The notes under the pieces are model-generated. The model saw only the letters and a program-made list of their open reading frames with translations, was not told where the DNA came from and did no database searches. Position numbers and translations under genes: made by a program. Positions 3 to 42,640 of a stretch of DNA of 64,000 nucleotides are shown here, piece by piece. The stretch lies in the IMG/VR virus record IMGVR_UViG_3300022752_000013; one strand, 5' to 3'. How positions within the stretch are numbered: position 1 is the stretch's first letter; the number at the start of each line of letters is the position of its first letter. Source of the stretch: a virus. Taxonomy: Duplodnaviria; Caudoviricetes.

Positions 3-638
3 TGGCGATGGAAACAAAGCCACACCAATGTGGTACGTCGTATACTGGGTCATGCCAAACGCGGCACTCGCGTGGTATTCATAGCAGGCAATCATGATGA
101 ATTCCTGCGTCCCATGATACCATATGGTTTTAGTTTTGGACTAATAGAGATTCAAAATCAAACTGAACACATTGGTGCAGACGGCCGACATTATCTTGTG
201 GTGCATGGAGACCTGTTTGATGGTATCACAAGACTGGCACCGTGGATAGCATTTTTAGGAGACCGAGCATATGACTTTATTCTTGCGCTTAATAGCCGAT
301 TTAATTGGCTACTGCATCGTTTTGGTATTGGGTACTTTAGTCTTAGCCAGTACCTTAAAAAACGAGTGAAGAAGGCTGTAGACTTTATTTTCCACTTTGA
401 AAAAAATCTAGCCAATTACTGTCGAAAGCGAGGCTACGATGGAGTGATATGTGGACACATACATCATGCAGAGATCAAAGAGATAGATGGTGTTGTATAC
501 ATGAATGATGGTGACTGGGTTGAATCATGCACCGCTCTAGTGGAACATCATACCGGACGCTGGGAGATTGTAACATGGACACAAAAAAATGACAAAGAAG
601 ATACTGATAATAACAGACAACTTACCGGACCAGATTAA
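3..638 (+). CDS. plcP: PlcP-type phospholipase C / LpxH2-like metallophosphoesterase (5' truncated by window edge)
   Basis: Frame is open from base 3 (WRWKQSHTNVVRRIL). Motifs GNHDE, HGDLFD, ICGHIHH and YMNDGDWVESCTA match the COG2908/PlcP family. Overlaps a GT4 gene as in bacterial plcP-agt operons. Confidence 0.8.
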   Translation, partial: WRWKQSHTNVVRRILGHAKRGTRVVFIAGNHDEFLRPMIPYGFSFGLIEIQNQTEHIGADGRHYLVVHGDLFDGITRLAPWIAFLGDRAYDFILALNSRFNWLLHRFGIGYFSLSQYLKKRVKKAVDFIFHFEKNLANYCRKRGYDGVICGHIHHAEIKEIDGVVYMNDGDWVESCTALVEHHTGRWEIVTWTQKNDKEDTDNNRQLTGPD

Positions 639-1590
639 TGGCGTGGTTACCACTTACAAGAACATTGAGGCTTGTGCGGTATTGGATGGTTATACTGTGG
701 ATTATATTGATCCCGGGCGGTTCCGCTATGTTGATTGTCCTGGCTACAACGAAGTCAAACTTGCCATTCCGCGGGAGATGGGCAAGAAGATCGAAGAGAT
801 TGATCCGGATCATATCCACATCGCCACAGAAGGTCCTCTTGGTCTGTGGGCTAGAAAGTATCTTTCAATATGTGGTTATAGGTATAACACCGCTTATCAT
901 ACTAAGTTTCCTGAAGGGTTAAAGAAACTGTTTGGTATTCCTGAAGCAGTGACTTGGCCCTTGGTGCGTTGGTTTCACAAACATTCGGGCAAAGTTCTGA
1001 CCACAACCGAAACCATGGTACGTGAATTACAATCACACGGGTTTAAAGGTCAAATTGTTCCGTGGACTCGCGGTGTTGACCGTGCAATCTTTAATCCTAC
1101 TCATAGACAAAAAACCATCAGTCGATACATCTTGTGTGTGAGCCGTGTGAGCAAAGAAAAGAATCTTGAAAAGTTTCTTAAAATGGACTATCCGGGGTTC
1201 TTAAAGATCATGGTGGGTGACGGTCCCATGTTGGAAACTTATCGCCGGCAGTATCCTGAGGTTTGCTTTACAGGATTCAAAACAGGAGTGGATCTAGCCC
1301 AATACTATGCCAACGCCGAAGTATTTGTGTTTCCCAGTCAATGGGAAACATTTGGCATTGTGATGATTGAAGCCATGGCCTGTGGAACTCCTGTGGCTGC
1401 CTATCCTTGTCAAGGCCCCGAAGATGTCATTGACGAAGGTGTCACTGGCTGTATGAACACAGATTTAAAGCAGGCCGTCACTGATTGTTTGTTTTTAAAT
1501 CGACAAGGTGTGTGGCAAGGTAGTCAACGTTGGTCATGGGAACGTGCCTGGGCGATATTTAAAGACAACTTGGTGCCAGCAAAGTCATAG
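589..1590 (+). CDS. agt: GT4 glycosyltransferase, Agt-like (monoglycosyl/glucuronosyl-diacylglycerol synthase-like)
   Basis: ITD..P.Q.NGVV N-terminus, HIATEGPLG, YHTKFPE, VSRVSKEKN and ETFGIVMIEAMACGTPV (GT-B EX7E). Position directly after plcP supports the Agt call. Confidence 0.7.
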   Translation: MTKKILIITDNLPDQINGVVTTYKNIEACAVLDGYTVDYIDPGRFRYVDCPGYNEVKLAIPREMGKKIEEIDPDHIHIATEGPLGLWARKYLSICGYRYNTAYHTKFPEGLKKLFGIPEAVTWPLVRWFHKHSGKVLTTTETMVRELQSHGFKGQIVPWTRGVDRAIFNPTHRQKTISRYILCVSRVSKEKNLEKFLKMDYPGFLKIMVGDGPMLETYRRQYPEVCFTGFKTGVDLAQYYANAEVFVFPSQWETFGIVMIEAMACGTPVAAYPCQGPEDVIDEGVTGCMNTDLKQAVTDCLFLNRQGVWQGSQRWSWERAWAIFKDNLVPAKS

Positions 1591-6690: not shown

Positions 6691-7275
6691 ATGATTATGG
6701 CCACACAAGAAACTATTCAAACGGAACAAAATCACTCACAGTCCCTGGCCGATAATGGCATGTATGTTTTCATGGGTGATGTGGATGACGAAAACATCAA
6801 GCCAGTGGTGGAATGGGTGTTGTACGAAAACTATGTGACCAAGAAAAAGAAAAAGGAACTACTACTGATGATCTGCTCCGGCGGAGGAGACATGGGTGCG
6901 GCCTTTGCCCTAATTGACGTCATGATGAGTTCGCAGATTCCAATTAAAACTGTGGGCCTAGGAACCATTGCATCAGCAGGACTCTTGATCTTTATATCCG
7001 GCACTCACGGACGCCGAATACTCACACCCAACACCAGTATCCTGAGCCATCAGTTCTCCTGGTACAACGAAGGCAAGGTACATGAGTTGTTTGCCACCAT
7101 GAAAGAGTTTGAACTCACACAGGCTCGAATGTTGGCACACTATGAATTGTGTACAGGTCTGGGGCGAGAAGAGATACGCACGAACCTGTTGCCGGCACAG
7201 GATGTATGGCTTTCAGCATCGGAAGCACTGGCCTTGGGCGTGTGCGATGATATCAGCGTTTTAAATAGATCTTAA
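6691..7275 (+). CDS. clpP: divergent ClpP-like protease
   Basis: ICSGGGD, GTIASAG (catalytic Ser), ILSHQ (His), QDVWLSASEA. Confidence 0.8.
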   Translation: MIMATQETIQTEQNHSQSLADNGMYVFMGDVDDENIKPVVEWVLYENYVTKKKKKELLLMICSGGGDMGAAFALIDVMMSSQIPIKTVGLGTIASAGLLIFISGTHGRRILTPNTSILSHQFSWYNEGKVHELFATMKEFELTQARMLAHYELCTGLGREEIRTNLLPAQDVWLSASEALALGVCDDISVLNRS

Positions 7276-11254: not shown

Positions 11255-12240
11255 TAATTACGACATTTGATCAAGGCTGGGGACGTGAATACCCGCTCAA
11301 ACAGTACGAGCAAGGTATTGTGAGTGATCTTGTGAAACCGTTTGTTAAGAGTGATCAACGTGTGGTCATAATCAACAGCGTGTGGTACACTGGGGAAATG
11401 CACGAACAAGTGATGTTGTGGTTGCGTGAGAATGAGTGGGATCAGATTGTGTTGATTGCCATGTTGGATGCTGCCATACCCTATCCTGACCGCTATGAGG
11501 AATTTGGTCGTCCGGTCACCGGTATAGGTTACTATCCGGGCGCAGGTCAAGTGGATTTTTGTGCATTATTTGTTGATCACTTTTTACAGGCCCCTGATAA
11601 CACTGTATTGTTGGAGGTCAACACAATTGACACTGCATACATGTGTTTGAATCGAAAACCTCACTGGCACAGACAAAAACTATACAGCAAACTACAGGCC
11701 ATGAATCTGGTCAATCAAGGCATTGTGAGCATGGGCGGCGACGGGCAGGCTGTAGTAGCATTGGCACAAGATCGAGATCACGACACCCTGGCACCCAATG
11801 CCACTAGCGATCATTATGGTATACCCAACGATATTGTGAGTTTGGGACACCCGGGTAATTGGCAACGACACCTGCTCAATGTGGTCACTGAAACCTTTTA
11901 CAACATAAATAGTTCAGGCTTTGTAAGTGAAAAAATCTACAAACCCATTGTGGGTTGCAGACCGTTTTTGGTATATGACCCAGATGGTGGCACACGTTGG
12001 TTGCGTGATCGAGGGTTTGAACCTTACACACAGGACTTTGAGGACATTTCGAATTTGGATCTGGCAGAACCACACAACCTACCCGGATTTCTAAAGGTTC
12101 TGTGTGAGCAAACACCTGCGTACTGGCAAAAGAAATTTGTTGACTTACAGGAAAAAATCCTATACAATCAGGCTCACTTTGCTGATTACGTCAAACAGCA
12201 ACAATCTATAGTCGAAAAAGGAATACCATGCCCCATTTAG
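11251..12240 (+). CDS. GT10-like protein, paralogue 3
   Basis: [26 protein letters not shown]; [12 protein letters not shown]. Confidence 0.55.
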
Positions 12241-12824
12241 TGCCAATTGTGCTTGAACAAACTGCCAAAGGCGAGCGCAGTTACGATATCTACAGTCGTC
12301 TATTAAAAGACCGTGTGATCATGCTGGACACAGAAGTGAGCGAACACACAGCCAGTCTGCTGGTAGCACAAATGCTGTTTTTGGAAAGTGATAACCCTGA
12401 TAAAGATATTTCCTTGTATATTAATTCGCCAGGTGGAAGTGTAACAGCGGGCATGGCCATTTATGATACCATGCAGTTTATTCGCTGTGATGTACAAACT
12501 ATCGTAATGGGACAGGCCTGCTCCATGGGGTCGTTGTTGGCCACAGCAGGAGCCGCAGGCAAACGTATGATCCTGCCCAATGCCCGACACATGATTCACC
12601 AGCCATCAGGTGGTGCTTCAGGACAAGCCACAGACATCCAAATTCAAGCACGTGAAATTCAAAAGATGAAAGAGTATCTTACCAACATCTATGTCAAACA
12701 CAACACAGCAGGCAAAGACTACGATGTACTGAGTGCAGACATGGAACGTGATTTCTTCATGAGTGCCCAAGAAGCAGTGGACTATGGTTTAGCAGATCGA
12801 ATCATCAATCAACGTGACCAATAA
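12228..12824 (+). CDS. clpP: ATP-dependent Clp protease proteolytic subunit (canonical)
   Basis: [40 protein letters not shown]. Confidence 0.95.
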
Positions 12825-14094
12825 TTTAAAAAACAATTTTTGTCCCAGCCCGTGGTTCCATATGAGAATCAACAATGCCGGGCATTATGAATACTGTCGT
12901 TGGGCGGCAACAGATCAACGCTATTCTGCTGACAATATCTACAACATAACACCAGTTGAGTTTTTTCAACAACGCATGACCAGTGTTAGACAAGAGTTAG
13001 CAACAGGTAATTCACCTCCTGGTTGTGCAAAATGCACACAGATGGAACGTCACAACAAAATCAGCGGACGACAAAAACAACTGCTCAAAGCAGGTGTTAG
13101 ACTTGAACATTTTGAAAAGACTCTAGCATCATCGCCGTGGTTGACAGAATTTGCCCAAGGTGGCGAGACAACACAAATGCCCCAGGATTGGCAAATAGAT
13201 CTTGGCAACTATTGCAACGGTGCCTGTGTATTTTGTAGCCCACATTCAAGTTCGCGCCTGGCGTCGGAGTTTAAAAAGATCGGCATCATCAATGATCTAC
13301 CACCTGCAAACTGGACCGACGATCCTGTGCGGGTTCAACAGTTGGTTGATACCTTGATCTCAAGTTCACACATACAATACTTGCATTTCATTGGTGGTGA
13401 AACACTGATAACTCCCGCATTCAAAACCATACTTGAGGCTCTGATTCAAGCCGGCTTGAATCGCACGGCCACAATTGGGTTTACTACTAATCTAGGCGTA
13501 TGGCGCGATGATGTGGTTGAACTGTTGACCCAATTCCAGGGAGTGAATCTTGGCATGAGTGTGGAGAGTTTTAAGATTGTGAATGACTATGTGCGTTATC
13601 CTGTGTGTTTGCCCACTGTGTTTGAAAGTATGGAACGTTGGTTAGAAATAAGTCAGCAACAAGATTGGTTAGTGCAGTTTAGAACCACGCCCACAGCACT
13701 CACAGTTGGTCACATGCTAGGAGTATATGAATATGCCTGGCACCACAACATTGCTGTGGAAAGTTGTAATTTTTTAAACAAGCCTGAGTGTTTGCGCCCA
13801 TCAGTTCTGCCTCTGGAATACAGACAACGCATTGTGTCCGACCTTGAAGCCTGGATAGACCAGCATCCGGTTGGCAGCGATGTGGTAGTAAACATTCGTG
13901 ATCCAAATGTAGCCCAACAACAAATTGTACAGGATCTACAGAGTTATGTGAATTATCTCAAGGCCGAATCGGATGAAAGTTGGCGTCTGCCAGACCTAGT
14001 TGAGTATTTGAAAAGACTGGAAGCCAATCGTGGCAACTCAATTGTAACTTATTTGCCTGAATATGAAGAACTTTTTACAACTGCTGGATACTGA
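12814..14094 (+). CDS. radical SAM protein with N-terminal SPASM/twitch-like Cys cluster
   Basis: CNGACVFC (CxxxCxxC), FIGGETL, FTTN; N-terminal FCPSPW..YC..CAKC. Confidence 0.85.
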
Positions 14095-18015: not shown

Positions 18016-18137
18016 TGAGTGAACCTGTTTGGACCATATCCTGGACCCAGAATTATCTCAACTGGGAACCCATTGAATTACCAATCACAGACTTCTCCCA
18101 AGCACAAGAAGTCATAGCAAGGATCATGTCACTATGA
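18015..18137 (+). CDS. small protein (40 aa; not in ORF track)
   Basis: MSEPVWTISW...EVIARIMSL; overlaps neighbours at both start and stop. Confidence 0.55.
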   Translation: MSEPVWTISWTQNYLNWEPIELPITDFSQAQEVIARIMSL

Positions 18138-18481
18138 AATGGTTTGCAGAAACTACTGACTACAAAGATAACACCCCCAACGGTGTGTACTTGCTGGACG
18201 ATGGCAAGAGCAAGATGTATGCGTTCAAGCCAAAAGGCACAGGCACTATCAAAGTATTCAAGAATCCCATCCGCATCGATGTGCGTGGGCGTAAGTTTGC
18301 CATCAACTCTGTTCAGTTTAAAACTAAACTAAAAGAAGAACAGCCCGAAGGGCGTGTGATTGAAGTTACAGGCAGTAAAGGCGACGTATACAAGGTTACC
18401 GAACTCAATGGCAACTTGTCTTGCACTTGTTCAGGATTCCGTTTCCGCGGCGACTGCAAGCACGTCAAGAGCGTGGCATGA
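18134..18481 (+). CDS. SWIM zinc-finger protein
   Basis: CTCSGFRFRGDCKHV (CxC-xn-CxH). Confidence 0.85.
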   Translation: MKWFAETTDYKDNTPNGVYLLDDGKSKMYAFKPKGTGTIKVFKNPIRIDVRGRKFAINSVQFKTKLKEEQPEGRVIEVTGSKGDVYKVTELNGNLSCTCSGFRFRGDCKHVKSVA

Positions 18482-18724: not shown

Positions 18725-19156
18725 TTACTTGTAAATGTAGTTGATGGTGTCCGAATTTTCGCGATAGACTCCAGCACCATTCTTTAAATGGAAACGTCGG
18801 GCCATCTCGGTCTTGGGACTTAGTGTAACATAGGTATCAATACCAGGGAATTCTTGCTTGATCGACTTCTGTGTTTCCACAATCAACTCACGCCCAGACC
18901 CTGCGGCGTAACTCCAAATTGTATAAAATACTGCAACAGTGGCACTTCCAACCAACTCAGCCAAGTCATCCACAGCCGCCGGAATGGCCTGCAAGAATTT
19001 GACACAGGTCACTGCTTGAGTTTGGTCCCCATCCTTCAACATGTAGATTCGACTGTTGGAGTTTATCCGTTTGGTCATGGGGATTTCAGGACGCACAGGG
19101 TCATCCTTGATCAGGGTTTCTAAGTCTTCTGTAATGGTGGTGATGGTGTGTAACAT
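18725..19156 (-). CDS. minimal malonyl-CoA decarboxylase-like (GNAT-fold) protein
   Basis: AVFYTI, G.G..LI, EFPGIDTYVTLSP, ARRFHLKNGA and NYIY match the order of MCD catalytic-domain motifs. Confidence 0.65.
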   Translation of the reverse strand: MLHTITTITEDLETLIKDDPVRPEIPMTKRINSNSRIYMLKDGDQTQAVTCVKFLQAIPAAVDDLAELVGSATVAVFYTIWSYAAGSGRELIVETQKSIKQEFPGIDTYVTLSPKTEMARRFHLKNGAGVYRENSDTINYIYK

Positions 19157-19224: not shown

Positions 19225-19566
19225 TTAGGTGTGGAGTTCTCGGTACCGAGCCATGGCTCGAGCACGGGCCACTGCCAGTCTCACCTGGACATACGCAGAC
19301 AACTCATCATCTGGTTGGTCGGTTGGTGGTGCCACCTTGGGACGTCGAGCCAAACTACTACAAAGAAATTCATCATCTGGAGCATCATAAGGATTGGTAC
19401 CTTGCAAACGAATGGCAGTGAATCTGTGTGGATTACTCCGCAATAGTTTGACTCTTGGCACTCGCGGTTGGTGCGCCCGTGTGTGCAAATCTTTAGATAC
19501 GTGAACAGGCACCTGGGCCCAGGCGGTGACGGATAATATGGCCACAATGATCAAGAAGTGTTTCAT
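19225..19566 (-). CDS. hypothetical exported protein
   Basis: Signal peptide MKHFLIIVAILSVTAWA. Confidence 0.6.
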   Translation of the reverse strand: MKHFLIIVAILSVTAWAQVPVHVSKDLHTRAHQPRVPRVKLLRSNPHRFTAIRLQGTNPYDAPDDEFLCSSLARRPKVAPPTDQPDDELSAYVQVRLAVARARAMARYRELHT

Positions 19567-19602: not shown

Positions 19603-19635
19603 CACAAAAAAAGGCTCCGAAGAGCCTTTTGTGTG
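19603..19635. terminator. bidirectional-type rho-independent terminator
   Basis: CACAAAAAAAGGCTC-CGAA-GAGCCTTTTGTGTG. Confidence 0.75.
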
Positions 19636-19648
19636 AATCAAATAATGG

Positions 19649-20191
19649 TTAACCCATTGTGTTATCTTGTTTTTCTTTTGGATGGCCCATTGCTCCGACT
19701 TGCCCTCTTCCTCTTCCAAAAAATGTATCAGCAAACATTAATAGTAATATTCCGATTGGAATAAGAATGCCAGATGCAACACCCATACCGGTACCGGCCA
19801 CGCCAGGTTGTGAACCTAAATATCCTCCAACAGCGGAACCTGCTATACCAATGGTGTATAACAATTGAATTAATTTACCTTTCCAATCTCCTGCTAAGCC
19901 CCAAGTAACTTCATCAAGTTGTTGTTCGGCCACTGCCTTTTTTGGTGCAATTTTGTCGAAACCAAGTGCTTTTGCTACCTTAATAGCATTTTCTTGACTT
20001 GGGGTAAAATCTCCGCCTGTGGCTTGTTTTACTTGCTGTGCAATTTGTTGAACTGTATCACCGCCCAAAAGTTTCATTGCTTTAGGTACCAGTGATTTGA
20101 TAGTATCCATCATGCCTTCATCAAGTTGAACCTTGGGTTGTTCTGCTTCCTTGATAATATCAATGTAGTTTCTTAAGAATTCTGTGCTCAT
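19649..20191 (-). CDS. putative virion/ejected membrane protein with LxE sites and Gly-rich TM hairpin
   Basis: Leader MSTEFLRNYIDIIKE; QLDE twice; two Gly-rich hydrophobic helices; TAAATA on minus strand at 20214-20219. Confidence 0.65.
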   Translation of the reverse strand: MSTEFLRNYIDIIKEAEQPKVQLDEGMMDTIKSLVPKAMKLLGGDTVQQIAQQVKQATGGDFTPSQENAIKVAKALGFDKIAPKKAVAEQQLDEVTWGLAGDWKGKLIQLLYTIGIAGSAVGGYLGSQPGVAGTGMGVASGILIPIGILLLMFADTFFGRGRGQVGAMGHPKEKQDNTMG

Positions 20192-22632: not shown

Positions 22633-23010
22633 ATGAACTTAGAAACTATCATAGCCGCCATGTTTACCGGAGTAGGATTTGGTGTGATTGTGTTCTTGCT
22701 ATTTGTTTGGATAATATCTCGACGAATCCAGTTTCGGATTGATTCAGAAATATCGGGTGTGATAGAAAAATTAGCCCAGGATCGACTGATAGCACTCACG
22801 GTGGAAATTGACAACAATCAGTACTTCTGCTACAATGCACTTACCAAAGACTTTGTATGCCAAGGCTACAGTTTGAAAGAAATCATAGAACGATTTCGTC
22901 TGCGTTATCCCGACAAGGCCGCCGCAATATATGACGGCGATGAAACAGCAGTACAGACACTCAAATCTCAAATGGATCAACTTGATAAATCAGACACAGT
23001 GCAATCTTAA
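22633..23010 (+). CDS. membrane-anchored hypothetical protein
   Basis: N-terminal TM helix; TAAATA at 22609-22614. Confidence 0.7.
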   Translation: MNLETIIAAMFTGVGFGVIVFLLFVWIISRRIQFRIDSEISGVIEKLAQDRLIALTVEIDNNQYFCYNALTKDFVCQGYSLKEIIERFRLRYPDKAAAIYDGDETAVQTLKSQMDQLDKSDTVQS

Positions 23011-24091
23011 AGGCACCCAAAAATTATTTTTTATCCAGTTAAATCAGGCTGCCTCTTGTTGTAGAAGTAATCTTGAATCGTTGCCGGCTGACATGTCAGA
23101 CTTGCTTGAGCATTGGCAACTGGAACATGATCAATTGACACAAGGCATTGCCGTTCAAAATTGTTCTGTTTGTTGGAAACAACAGGCCCAAGGTCATACA
23201 TCTTGGAGACAACTACACGGTCACCAGAATAACAACACCGTTGAACTGTGGTTGAACAATTCCTGCAATCAAATGTGTAGTTATTGTAGTCCAAAATTCT
23301 CTAGCACTTGGCAACAGAATATCATTGACCACGGACCTTTTGAAAATATCAGTAGCACAGCCAAATCCAATCTTGACCTGCCACCAATAGCAATAGATCA
23401 GCAACAGTGGATAGAAAAAATAGGTGAATATTTACAATCTCAACCTCCAGAATCAGTTGATCTAAAGTTGTTGGGCGGTGAGCCCTTGATGCAGATTCGA
23501 AATTTACAAAAATTAATTGATCTTTCTGGTAATAGTATAAATCAACTGATGATAAACACCAATCTCAATCCTCCCAACAATCGATTCCTGCATTGGTTAT
23601 TGGACACAGTGCCTGCTTACAAACTCAAATTTGAGATAAGTCTAGACGCCAGTCCCAAATATAATCATGTGCCAAGAGCAGGATTTGATCCAGAACGATT
23701 CCATACCAATTTAGAATTGCTGATTGAAAAAAATATAAATTTTGGTTTTTTGTCGGTTATGAGTGTGCTGAGTATTTTTGACTTGCCCGACTTTACGAAA
23801 TGGTCTCAACCATATCAAGTGGCATTTAACAAAATCAACAATCCGGATTGCCTGGACCCAATTTGGTTACCAATGGAAATCTTAGACCAAATAAACAACC
23901 AGTTTGAGCAAGAACCGCCAATGATTTTCCAAGAATTATACAACAAGCCGCAATCTTTGGTTGACCTAAAATTGTTTGAGCAGTATAATTACTTGTGTCA
24001 GTATTTTTCTAGAACTGGCATAAACATCAAACAAATCGATAATCTCTTGTTCCAACAATATTGGACTTGGCTAGAAGAAAGACAAAAATGA
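22931..24091 (+). CDS. radical SAM protein
   Basis: CNQMCSYC, LLGGEPL, INTN; true start uncertain. Confidence 0.75.
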   Translation: MTAMKQQYRHSNLKWINLINQTQCNLKGTQKLFFIQLNQAASCCRSNLESLPADMSDLLEHWQLEHDQLTQGIAVQNCSVCWKQQAQGHTSWRQLHGHQNNNTVELWLNNSCNQMCSYCSPKFSSTWQQNIIDHGPFENISSTAKSNLDLPPIAIDQQQWIEKIGEYLQSQPPESVDLKLLGGEPLMQIRNLQKLIDLSGNSINQLMINTNLNPPNNRFLHWLLDTVPAYKLKFEISLDASPKYNHVPRAGFDPERFHTNLELLIEKNINFGFLSVMSVLSIFDLPDFTKWSQPYQVAFNKINNPDCLDPIWLPMEILDQINNQFEQEPPMIFQELYNKPQSLVDLKLFEQYNYLCQYFSRTGINIKQIDNLLFQQYWTWLEERQK

Positions 24092-41074: not shown

Positions 41075-42640
41075 ATGTATCATGTAAAATTAAATGATTC
41101 AACTGCTCGAGTACTATTCCTTGGCAACAACAATGAATCTACAGATCATCAAGTGTCAACTCTGGCAACAGAACACGACATTGTCAATCATGGACTAGTA
41201 ATCGAATCTAAGGTTGTTCATGACCAACCAGGATTTTATCATACCACTGTGGTAGACATTCCCTGGGGCGATTTAATTTCATTTGCATCAAAATTTGATT
41301 TGATTGTCATGTTAGATCAGCCGCAGGCTCAATGGAGTCATTGGAAATGCATGCAGGCCACATTTAAGTTAATGGTCAAACTGGAACAAATGGGGTGTGA
41401 TACTGTATTTCGTAACAATAAAAATATTAAAAAAATCTTATATTGGTCCGACTTGGTGTACAAAGAAAACAAAAGTTTTTGTATATACCCATGGATTAAT
41501 TTCTTCAATGACGGAAAAGAACTTAGATTATGTTCACGTGCTGACACTGCGGTGACCAAAATTGATCAATTTCAAGACTGGAAGTCTGATCCTAATTATA
41601 CCCAAATTCGCGATTCAATGTTACAAGGTCACAAACTGCCAGAACATTGCAAAGTGTGTTATGAGTATGAAGATCATGACATTGAAAGTTACAGGCAATT
41701 TGAAACCATGGACTGGGCAGTGCAATTGGATTTAGAAACAGTTGAAGATCTGGAGAAAATTCAACACCCTTATTTTTACGAAATTCACACAGGTAATCAT
41801 TGCAACATCAAATGTAGAGGTTGTCAACCAGCGTTCAGTGAGCCCATTGGTAAAGAATTAAAAAAATTCAATATTGTCACACCCGGTACCATGATGTGGA
41901 CTCCCAGCACGTCAACTCTAGATCAAATCAGCATAGACGACTTAGACAGCAAATCTACTGTTTATTTTCAAGGCGGCGAACCCACGATCATGCCAGAAGT
42001 TCTGGACTTTATGAAACAGTGCATCAAGAAAAATCAGACAGATTTCAATCTCACCATGTGTACCAACGGAGTAAAATTTTCTGACGAATTTTTAGAAACA
42101 GTTTCGCATTTTCCCAACACCAATTTTAGTTTCAGCATTGATGGGTACGCCAAGGTCAATGACTACTGGAGATCAGGATCCAAATGGGACCGAGTCATAG
42201 CAAATGCACACATGATACAGAATCTTGGTCATTCTGTCAGTATTAACACTGTGCCGGGTATTTACAATGTGACCAACTTGCATCTGTTGTTTGAATTTTT
42301 AGATCGTGAATTCCCGTTTACTGCTATCTATCTACAAATCAATTACCTGGCTTGGCAGTCAGCATTCAATCATCCTCGTCAAGATCTAGTAGTTGAATCC
42401 ATGCTCAAATGCATGCAGACATCTGTGTATCATTCCAATGGTAAAAGTTGCAAAAGTGGTATAGACAGCATTTACAATCATTACAACAATAATCCAGTTT
42501 GTGACCTCAAAGATCTCAAAGATTTTTTTGCATACAACGATCAGTTGGACCGTGCTCGCGGCACAAAACTAGCAGATTACATACCTGAATTAGAGGCCGC
42601 AAGAAGTTACATTTTGGAACTCAATCATGAAACCATGTGA
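41075..42640 (+). CDS. radical SAM protein with SPASM/twitch-like domain and N-terminal extension
   Basis: CNIKCRGC, FQGGEPT, CTNG, FSIDG; FCIYPW..C..HCKVC. Confidence 0.85.
   Translation: MYHVKLNDSTARVLFLGNNNESTDHQVSTLATEHDIVNHGLVIESKVVHDQPGFYHTTVVDIPWGDLISFASKFDLIVMLDQPQAQWSHWKCMQATFKLMVKLEQMGCDTVFRNNKNIKKILYWSDLVYKENKSFCIYPWINFFNDGKELRLCSRADTAVTKIDQFQDWKSDPNYTQIRDSMLQGHKLPEHCKVCYEYEDHDIESYRQFETMDWAVQLDLETVEDLEKIQHPYFYEIHTGNHCNIKCRGCQPAFSEPIGKELKKFNIVTPGTMMWTPSTSTLDQISIDDLDSKSTVYFQGGEPTIMPEVLDFMKQCIKKNQTDFNLTMCTNGVKFSDEFLETVSHFPNTNFSFSIDGYAKVNDYWRSGSKWDRVIANAHMIQNLGHSVSINTVPGIYNVTNLHLLFEFLDREFPFTAIYLQINYLAWQSAFNHPRQDLVVESMLKCMQTSVYHSNGKSCKSGIDSIYNHYNNNPVCDLKDLKDFFAYNDQLDRARGTKLADYIPELEAARSYILELNHETM

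Follow-up and report, generated by a model that had tools for sequence, protein, structure and literature searches.

A stand-alone 143-residue family on the malonyl-CoA decarboxylase branch of GNAT-fold decarboxylases, encoded by a large lake phage

The 64,000-nucleotide stretch of IMG/VR record IMGVR_UViG_3300022752_000013 analysed here (the window) belongs to a large T4-like lake phage, which also encodes radical SAM proteins, two ClpP homologues, glycosyltransferases and an FG-GAP protein. At 18725-19156 on its minus strand, the list of open reading frames (ORFs) and the translation gave one ATG-to-stop ORF of 143 residues, with the ATG at 19156 and the stop codon at 18725-18727 included. 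A reading of the sequence alone had described the product as a miniature protein with the fold of malonyl-CoA decarboxylase (MCD). To our knowledge, all MCDs described so far are two-domain enzymes of about 450 residues. The question raised by this locus is what a stand-alone GNAT-fold domain of 143 residues, named mini-MCD here, shares with that enzyme and what it may do.

Relation to malonyl-CoA decarboxylase

The resemblance of mini-MCD to MCD was confirmed and is far beyond chance. The protein exceeded the cut-off of the Pfam model PF05292 (MCD C-terminal domain), scoring 26.6 bits where 23.2 are required (E 5.5e-6), in a match confined to the GNAT core of that model. A phmmer search of the PDB sequences recovered only the bacterial MCDs 4ksa and 4ksf, with AVFYTI paired to AVFYSI, VTLSP to VTLSP and RFHLKNGA to RFHLGNGA. 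A family profile built from 108 sequences recovered all five MCD entries among the PDB sequences (E 8e-8 to 5e-6), and the only other rows were three unrelated chains with E 0.17-0.36. The same profile paired the N-terminal motif with the HPVK..KRRVGPYRRCY region of human MCD. Comparison by hhalign with a profile of five alphaproteobacterial MCDs gave a probability of 98.7% and an E value of 4.5e-16 over residues 28-143. Here KR (29-30) was placed on RR (R197-R198), TLSP on TLSP, FHLKNGA on FHLGNGA and NYIY on NYLY. All five motif pairings given in the sequence-only reading, KRINSNSRIY, AVFYTI, ARRFHLKNGA and NYIY among them, were therefore reproduced by phmmer, the family profile and hhalign. 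No acetyltransferase model matched the query in Pfam or NCBIfam, and PF09500 gave no match in Pfam. Searches of PHROGs and NCBIfam assigned the query to no meaningful family.

The AlphaFold2 model, built with the family alignment, reached a mean pLDDT (predicted local distance difference test) of 96.9 and a pTM (predicted template modelling score) of 0.91. It represents a complete minimal GNAT fold in the order β1, α1, β2, β3, a short helix, β4, α3, β5, α4, β6 and β7. In a Foldseek search of PDB the first 17 rows were all MCD chains, with E values from 1.7e-7, while ordinary acetyltransferases followed from 1e-5. Comparison with MCD by profile and by Foldseek, proposed with the original reading as its check, thus agreed. 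A second fold search, independent of Foldseek, supplied the Z scores, numbers of aligned residues and identities given below. The best match was human MCD (2ygw), with Z 15.9, a root-mean-square deviation of 2.0 Å and 27% identity over 143 of 143 residues. It was followed by the SxtA decarboxylase (Z 14.9, 141 residues, 15% identity), the MCD of C. metallidurans (CmMCD; Z 13.9, 138 residues, 28% identity), the GphF GNAT-like decarboxylase (Z 13.8, 141 residues, 16% identity), serotonin N-acetyltransferase (Z 13.7, 139 residues, 9% identity) and the GNAT_L domain of CurA (Z 13.6, 141 residues, 16% identity). Except serotonin N-acetyltransferase, most ordinary acetyltransferases aligned over 116-135 residues with Z of 13.4 or less. 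The structural alignments showed an identity of 27-28% to MCD and 8-18% to any acetyltransferase. Z differences of 1-2 are small, yet in comparisons made with the predicted model it is the decarboxylases of the superfamily whose alignments take in the protein from end to end. The description as a miniature MCD-fold protein has the support of the sequence profiles, the fold searches and the confident model.

The GNAT-type core is common to mini-MCD and MCD/MatA (EC 4.1.1.9; 2ygw, 4f0x, 4ksa, 4ksf and 4ks9). Both share the motifs AVFY(T/S)I, (T/S)LSP, FHLxNGA and NYxY, a Ser-His dyad, a His-anchoring Tyr, a Phe platform and a conserved Arg in the α2 region. The difference lies in what surrounds this core, as MCDs possess 415-490 residues. 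The 130-150-residue N-terminal helical oligomerisation domain is missing, as had been proposed: model residues 1-143 span residues 196-457 of human MCD, residue 1 falls on human residue 196 in the first GNAT strand, and hhalign agrees. The large insertion between LSP and FHL, also said to be omitted, is absent in both hhalign and the structural superposition; in MCD it comprises three to five helices between β5 and β6 (α5-α7). A 5-residue insertion in the β4-α3 loop of MCD is missing too, and therefore the canonical G-x-G pyrophosphate loop is kept. The insertion of about 14 residues in the last hairpin, which holds a conserved Asp, and the C-terminal tail are likewise absent. This loop gives mini-MCD an ancestral look, not that of a modern MCD that has been pared down. 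Asp19 and Cys51, invariant in the mini family, are not MCD features.

Mini-MCD is therefore a distinct stand-alone family on the MCD branch of the GNAT-fold decarboxylases. It is not to be filed as MCD because the helical domain and the β5-β6 insert are missing, even though the MCD sequence model matches and the active-site residues are in place. The automatic names of the nearest clusters in ESM Atlas are 'MCD C-terminal domain-containing protein', and these clusters are 100% viral. What is already known is thus an automatic Pfam-domain tag in databases, while the stand-alone form is new and unstudied in the literature searched. Literature searches on MCD in phages, MCD as an auxiliary metabolic gene, PF05292, and Pelagibacter with FabH found no study of such a protein.

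Active site and the reaction it suggests

Conservation was counted in 108 family representatives having about 31-59% identity with the query, some columns holding 107 sequences. Human equivalents were assigned from the HMMER chain numbering (offset 35) and from the superposition of model residues 1-143 on residues 196-457 of 2ygw. All coordinates in this section are on the minus strand. The catalytic residues of human MCD are Ser329 and His423; the S329A variant loses 110-fold in kcat and H423N 7-fold (Froese et al., PMC3701320). Both are retained in mini-MCD, as the sequence-only reading had claimed, and align with Ser113 and His123. Ser113 is situated in T111-L112-S113-P114 at the end of β5 (18815-18826) and corresponds also to Ser312 of RpMCD and Thr355 of CurA. 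It is present in 107 of the 108 representatives, and Thr111 in all 108. His123 belongs to F122-H123-L124-K125-N126-G127-A128 in helix α4 (18773-18793) and is equivalent to CurA His389. The motif is highly conserved (His123 in 106/107, Asn126 in 99/107, Gly127 in 103/107 and Ala128 in 106/107). The preceding Arg121 aligns with RpMCD/CurA Arg387, a contact for the 3'-phosphate of CoA. Ten residues separate Ser113 from His123, compared with about 50-95 in MCDs, and the model places a single helix (117-125) there.

In human MCD, Tyr456 holds the catalytic His, and Phe288 on β4 lies beneath the departing carboxylate (Froese et al., PMC3701320). Their equivalents in mini-MCD are Tyr142 and Phe77. 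Tyr142, which matches CurA Tyr419 as well, is part of N139-Y140-I141-Y142 in the last strand (18731-18742); Tyr142 and Asn139 are each found in 106/107 representatives. Strand β4 is formed by F77-Y78-T79-I80-W81-S82 (18911-18928), in which Tyr78, equivalent to human Tyr289, is present in 108/108. Phe77 is Phe in 67/108 and Leu or Ala in 24. Retention of this Tyr and Phe, the very large size of the family and its chromosomal copies in SAR11-like and roseobacter-like bacteria go beyond what had been read from the sequence.

The dyads of CurA and MCD are equivalent, composed of His with Thr or Ser (Froese et al., PMC3701320). Like mini-MCD, CurA GNAT_L (2ree/2ref), GphF (6mfc) and SxtA (7uci) are compact GNAT decarboxylases with no MCD helical domain, with Z 13.6-14.9 over 141 of 143 residues. 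They share the His plus Thr/Ser dyad and the anchoring Tyr, but the identity is only 15-16%. They are domains of about 190-200 residues in multidomain synthases and pass the product to a neighbouring acyl carrier protein (ACP), while mini-MCD is free-standing and has no ACP or polyketide synthase (PKS) gene nearby.

From the homology, fold, conservation, distribution and neighbourhoods observed, we infer a substrate, a chemistry and a physiological role. With moderate confidence, mini-MCD is considered to be a cofactor-free malonyl-thioester decarboxylase of the MCD lineage that would act on the host pool. The host pool is suggested because five related phage records, searched for ACP (PP-binding domain), ketoacyl synthase and FabI-like genes, had none of them. 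In a mechanism modelled on those proposed for MCD and CurA, malonyl-CoA or malonyl-ACP would bind with its phosphopantetheine arm along strand β4 and its phosphates on the G86-x-G88 loop and at the dipole of the next helix. Ser113 and His123, the latter held by Tyr142, would hydrogen-bond the thioester carbonyl and stabilise the enolate as CO2 departs over Phe77. Ser113 would then protonate the carbanion, giving the acetyl thioester. Neither a cofactor nor the helical domain would be required. Such a reaction could deplete malonyl units, which would slow fatty-acid elongation and give acetyl units back, or it could make acetyl primers. If this holds, a 143-residue core with every catalytic residue would mean that the helical domain and the inserts of MCD are dispensable for the chemistry. 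It would be the smallest scaffold for a cofactor-free acyl-thioester decarboxylase and would show how the GNAT acetyltransferase fold became a decarboxylase.

Phages often reprogramme their hosts through small binders. A small stand-alone protein with a conserved CoA-binding loop might likewise be a non-catalytic binder of CoA or acyl-CoA on the MCD scaffold, working as a sensor or a sequestering factor. This is very improbable, as Ser113, His123, Tyr142, Asn126 and Asn139 stay nearly invariant down to about 31% identity, the pattern expected for an active site.

The part of the sequence nearest to ordinary acetyltransferases is GNAT motif A, the pyrophosphate loop G86-S87-G88-R89-E90-L91 (18884-18901). 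The family pattern is Y-x-x-G-x-G/A-x-x-L, with Gly86 in 102/108 and Gly or Ala at position 88 in 108/108. The first position is Tyr83, not Gln or Arg. The loop is canonical in length, whereas MCDs have a 5-residue insertion there, seen as a gap in hhalign, and have lost the pattern. Motif A of MCD has been described as degenerate, with the general-base Glu and the general-acid Tyr of canonical GNATs absent (Froese et al., PMC3701320). The canonical enzymes RimI (5isv), PaiA (1tiq) and AANAT (1kuv) resemble mini-MCD in size, topology and the motif A loop for the CoA pyrophosphate. In the N-terminal part, D18-D19-P20-V21-R22-P23 (19088-19105) falls in the α1-α2 region, which lines the acceptor/acyl pocket in GNATs; D19 is invariant and P20 and R22 occur in at least 90% of the 108 representatives. 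Arg30 (19067-19069; 103/107) aligns in hhalign with an Arg invariant in the five bacterial MCDs.

These features bear on a second explanation, a possible one that we consider clearly the less probable: mini-MCD may be an acyl-CoA-dependent GNAT acyltransferase, the closest relative of MCD, which acylates a small amine or some other metabolite, with polyamines, amino-acid analogues and toxins as examples. Its ordinary GNAT size, full topology and canonical motif A, lost in MCDs, would suit such an enzyme, hundreds of acetyltransferases match the fold at Z 11-13, and the family-specific invariants D19, P20, R22, C51 and W81 could form an acceptor site. The active site argues otherwise. Where ordinary GNATs have their general-acid Tyr, mini-MCD has His123, a feature of MCD and CurA too, and its Ser-His-Tyr combination is that established for the decarboxylases. 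The PKS GNAT-like domains which share the dyad are described as decarboxylases in their structure titles. Identity is roughly twice as high with MCD as with any acetyltransferase, and sequence searches with the query gave no acetyltransferase family.

Within the decarboxylase reading, the acyl pocket raises the matter of the substrate. Cys51 (19004-19006) is present in 108/108 representatives and is family-specific, the position being His254 in human MCD and Glu in bacterial MCDs. In human MCD, His254 is beside Ser290, which points away from the pantetheine (Froese et al., PMC3701320). A role of Cys51 as an acyl-enzyme nucleophile was considered and is unlikely, as its human equivalent packs against this Ser290. 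By this alignment it is probably a structural packing residue beside β4. The replacement of His/Glu by Cys51, the family-specific Trp81 and the Leu or Ala at position 77 in about a quarter of the representatives make the pocket different from that of MCD. The family might then be an MCD-type decarboxylase or lyase of another activated acid, such as methylmalonyl-CoA or a β-carboxy- or β-sulfo-acyl thioester, the link with fatty acids being incidental. The GNAT-fold decarboxylases SxtA, GphF and CurA do accept varied malonyl derivatives, and a TauE/SafE-type anion exporter among the neighbours of the cellular copies would suit an anionic product or substrate. We regard this as unlikely, as no pathway genes for such substrates stand beside the gene in the contexts examined, and only malonyl thioesters are certain to exist in every host of so many phages.

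Distribution, fatty-acid synthesis and gene neighbourhoods

A word-indexed search at E of 1e-3 or below found 6052 clusters (90% identity), nearly all of 143-160 residues and on contigs up to about 335 kb, so that, for a small and unstudied gene, mini-MCD is one of the more widespread in aquatic phages. An exhaustive search found 354 matches among 50%-identity representatives. A scan of IMG/VR for related loci, made with a 14-row family alignment, gave at least 557, so the family is large. It is almost always stand-alone. The sole longer form found, P0168/P0272 (359-360 residues), consists of an N-terminal mini-MCD domain and about 215 C-terminal residues. The top representative match, P0122 (2180 residues), was rejected as an artefact of a tandem FN3-like repeat summing weak scores.

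A scan of one genome per prokaryotic species gave 19 loci; some were clearly phage contigs binned into metagenome-assembled genomes (MAGs) and others were chromosomal. In a low-GC (guanine-plus-cytosine) Paracoccaceae-like genus, the gene was found in 6/15 genomes, at a syntenic position flanked by an Anbu-type peptidase operon and panE. One genome of this genus (G003) has two mini-MCD copies with an EamA gene after each. In an alphaproteobacterial family with genomes of 0.6-1.6 Mb and 26-33% GC, 41 of 151 genomes, about a quarter of those sampled, carry the gene, on contigs up to 1.2 Mb. This family is called SAR11-like from its genome properties, its class and its grouping in the tree with a protein of Pelagibacter phage Mosig (99% support). 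Elsewhere the gene was rare, with 3/400 other alphaproteobacterial genomes and 0/400 other genomes of the phylum. In a Rhodobacterales genome (G038; L123 1291-1800) a 170-residue ORF resembles MCD in its C-terminal part alone, beginning at the motif A helix, and it is probably a broken or shortened full-length MCD rather than part of the mini family. With four alphaproteobacterial MCDs as outgroup, the mini family formed a single clade apart from MCD (100% support). In the tree rooted on MCD, viral sequences surround the cellular clades, but MCD is joined by a very long branch and the viral sequences had been picked for their similarity to the query.

Nine SAR11-like loci, all of one clade, carry the gene directly after fabA-fabB-fabI on the same strand, with gaps of 18-123 nucleotides and a convergent pnp next. 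None of the 151 SAR11-like genomes showed FabH above the model cut-off, eight of them having weaker KAS III-like matches; as a control, the same model found FabH in 13/14 reference genomes. Mad/YiiD_C (PF09500) was found in 0/151. In the Paracoccaceae-like genus, FabH above the cut-off was also found in 0/15. Among the genomes with KAS III-like matches, 1/7 carries mini-MCD compared with 27% overall; an anticorrelation was not accepted on numbers so small. In five SAR11-like genomes checked, the single strong KAS I/II-type match was the FabB of the fabA-fabB-fabI cluster (e.g. G1043:C4:73605-76622).

Decarboxylation of malonyl-ACP is an established FabH-independent start of fatty-acid synthesis, carried out by a non-homologous enzyme (PMC8666670). 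The fab-cluster and FabH-less context therefore points to malonyl thioesters. The same reaction and the same priming role, proposed for mini-MCD, are those of MadA (YiiD) and MadB (PF09500; PMC8666670). The likeness would be a functional analogy only, as MadA and MadB have an unrelated hot-dog fold with a catalytic Asn and the mini-MCD model has a GNAT fold. Mini-MCD is thus a concrete candidate for starting fatty-acid synthesis without FabH or Mad in the most abundant marine bacteria, and if it acts on malonyl thioesters it would represent a so far undescribed phage route to control of host fatty-acid synthesis. A wider proposal is offered tentatively and is itself rather doubtful. In it, mini-MCDs would be malonyl-ACP/CoA decarboxylases that prime or tune the FabH-less synthesis of SAR11. 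They would have been taken up by thousands of aquatic phages, from T4-like pelagiphages to lake phages of 330-520 kb, to control host lipid synthesis, and would preserve the state before the accretion that gave two-domain MCDs.

Several observations weigh against a malonyl-thioester decarboxylase. In the protein itself, motif A is still canonical, the size is that of an ordinary GNAT, and Phe77 is Phe in only 62% of representatives. The Asp that MCDs conserve where CurA has Arg404 (Asp378 in the L115 protein) lies within the hairpin insertion missing from the mini family, the near-invariant Asn134 being closest. In the genomes, the fab-cluster location represents one clade and so one evolutionary event in the tree, and the gene occupies the 3' end, where the insertion of an acquired gene could be neutral. 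Across SAR11-like genomes the gene was seen in seven or more contexts. Only 27% of these genomes have the gene, though none shows FabH above the cut-off, and FabB alone can initiate synthesis in Pseudomonas putida (PMC10869286). On account of this carriage and this precedent the gene cannot be essential for initiation. Finally, the cellular copies of separate lineages repeatedly have exporter-type membrane proteins as neighbours, an adjacency that the decarboxylase reading does not account for and that fits better with an acyltransferase that modifies a compound for export.

The exporters belong to different families. In the Paracoccaceae-like genus an EamA gene follows both paralogues (L021 6517-7425). 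The others are an SMR protein, a divergent MatE, a TauE/SafE protein with a small GNAT, and a LysE-like protein with five transmembrane segments together with one of nine, identified by eye; the further coordinates are L132 6091-6426, L133 6441-7757, L148 556-1308 and L139 2012-2608. This recurrence is the best evidence for the acyltransferase. The product of the cellular enzyme may be exported by the adjoining efflux protein, while the phage copy would neutralise or modify a host or phage metabolite, a scenario to which we give a minor share of our confidence. A precedent is reportedly provided by the blt-bltD pair of B. subtilis, in which a spermidine acetyltransferase is coupled to an efflux pump. 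The association emerged only in hindsight and from streamlined genomes rich in transporters, and phage copies have no transporter neighbours. Decarboxylation of malonyl thioesters is therefore still preferred here. Beside the cellular copies, no PP-binding domain was seen in the contexts examined.

The phage and the local setting of the gene

In phages, the neighbours of mini-MCD are genes of the early/replication region with no metabolic theme. A nucleotidyltransferase-domain protein, a DnaB-like helicase, a metallophosphatase and a 2OG-Fe(II) oxygenase are conserved beside it; a pathway was rejected for them, as they reflect synteny in one phage clade. Viral records related to the window are 331-525 kb long with an estimated completeness of 95-100%. 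One of them (G1071; 524,565 bp) possesses two mini-MCD copies, at 104358-104795 and 429480-429917. DNA of the window phage is present in lake and freshwater metagenomes of many studies. A megablast comparison of the region with cultured phages gave no match, and tblastn against cultured phages gave one real relative, the protein of Pelagibacter phage Mosig (34.6%), annotated as hypothetical. Two contigs of Haliscomenobacter MAGs (L009 and L010; 62 and 70 kb) carry copies 83% and 77% identical to the query. These copies fall inside the viral clade of the window itself in the tree, and the GC content of 44.6% is the same as that of the phage. The contigs are either mis-binned phage DNA or a hint of the host.

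Upstream of mini-MCD, the ORF list shows a co-oriented ORF of 113 residues with a signal-peptide-like N-terminus (19225-19566, minus strand), for which a Pfam scan gave no match. As it is confined to the closest relatives (7/82 loci), it counts as a neighbour specific to this lineage, not as a partner conserved across the family. A terminator-like hairpin with a T run (19609-19630, minus strand), a pattern match from the consensus scan, follows a gene of 180 residues and is the probable upstream boundary of a two-gene minus-strand unit made of the 113-residue ORF and mini-MCD. Near the mini-MCD gene the same scan gave only weak promoter consensus matches. In one lake metatranscriptome, short contigs about 88% alike over parts of the mini-MCD ORF were found, coming from a related strain. 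They were not counted as evidence of expression, being from another strain and possibly DNA carry-over.

The 180-residue gene before this unit (19649-20191, minus strand) encodes a protein with a hydrophobic and glycine-rich C-terminal half, and the terminator-like hairpin lies behind it. It is missing from the close relative L002, where the flanking genes are 170 nucleotides apart, and one metagenome contig joins 19584 to 20252 across it. Judged from these junctions, it looks like a strain-level insertion or deletion. On the other side, two genes from mini-MCD and on the convergent strand, a SWIM-zinc-finger-like protein of 115 residues is encoded (18134-18481, plus strand), and it accompanies mini-MCD in 17/81 other viral loci examined.

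At the start of the window, a metallophosphoesterase gene (3-638, plus strand) is followed by a GT4 glycosyltransferase gene (589-1590, plus strand), both identified by Pfam domains only. The two are consistent with a putative PlcP-Agt pair for membrane-lipid remodelling. An interference of mini-MCD with host lipid metabolism would fit such a pair. Two ClpP-family protease genes are present, at 6691-7275 and 12228-12824 (both plus strand), one match being strong (E 3.5e-80) and the other divergent (E 1.5e-25). The 64-kb window also encodes three separate radical SAM proteins, at 12814-14094, 22931-24091 and 41075-42640 (plus strand).

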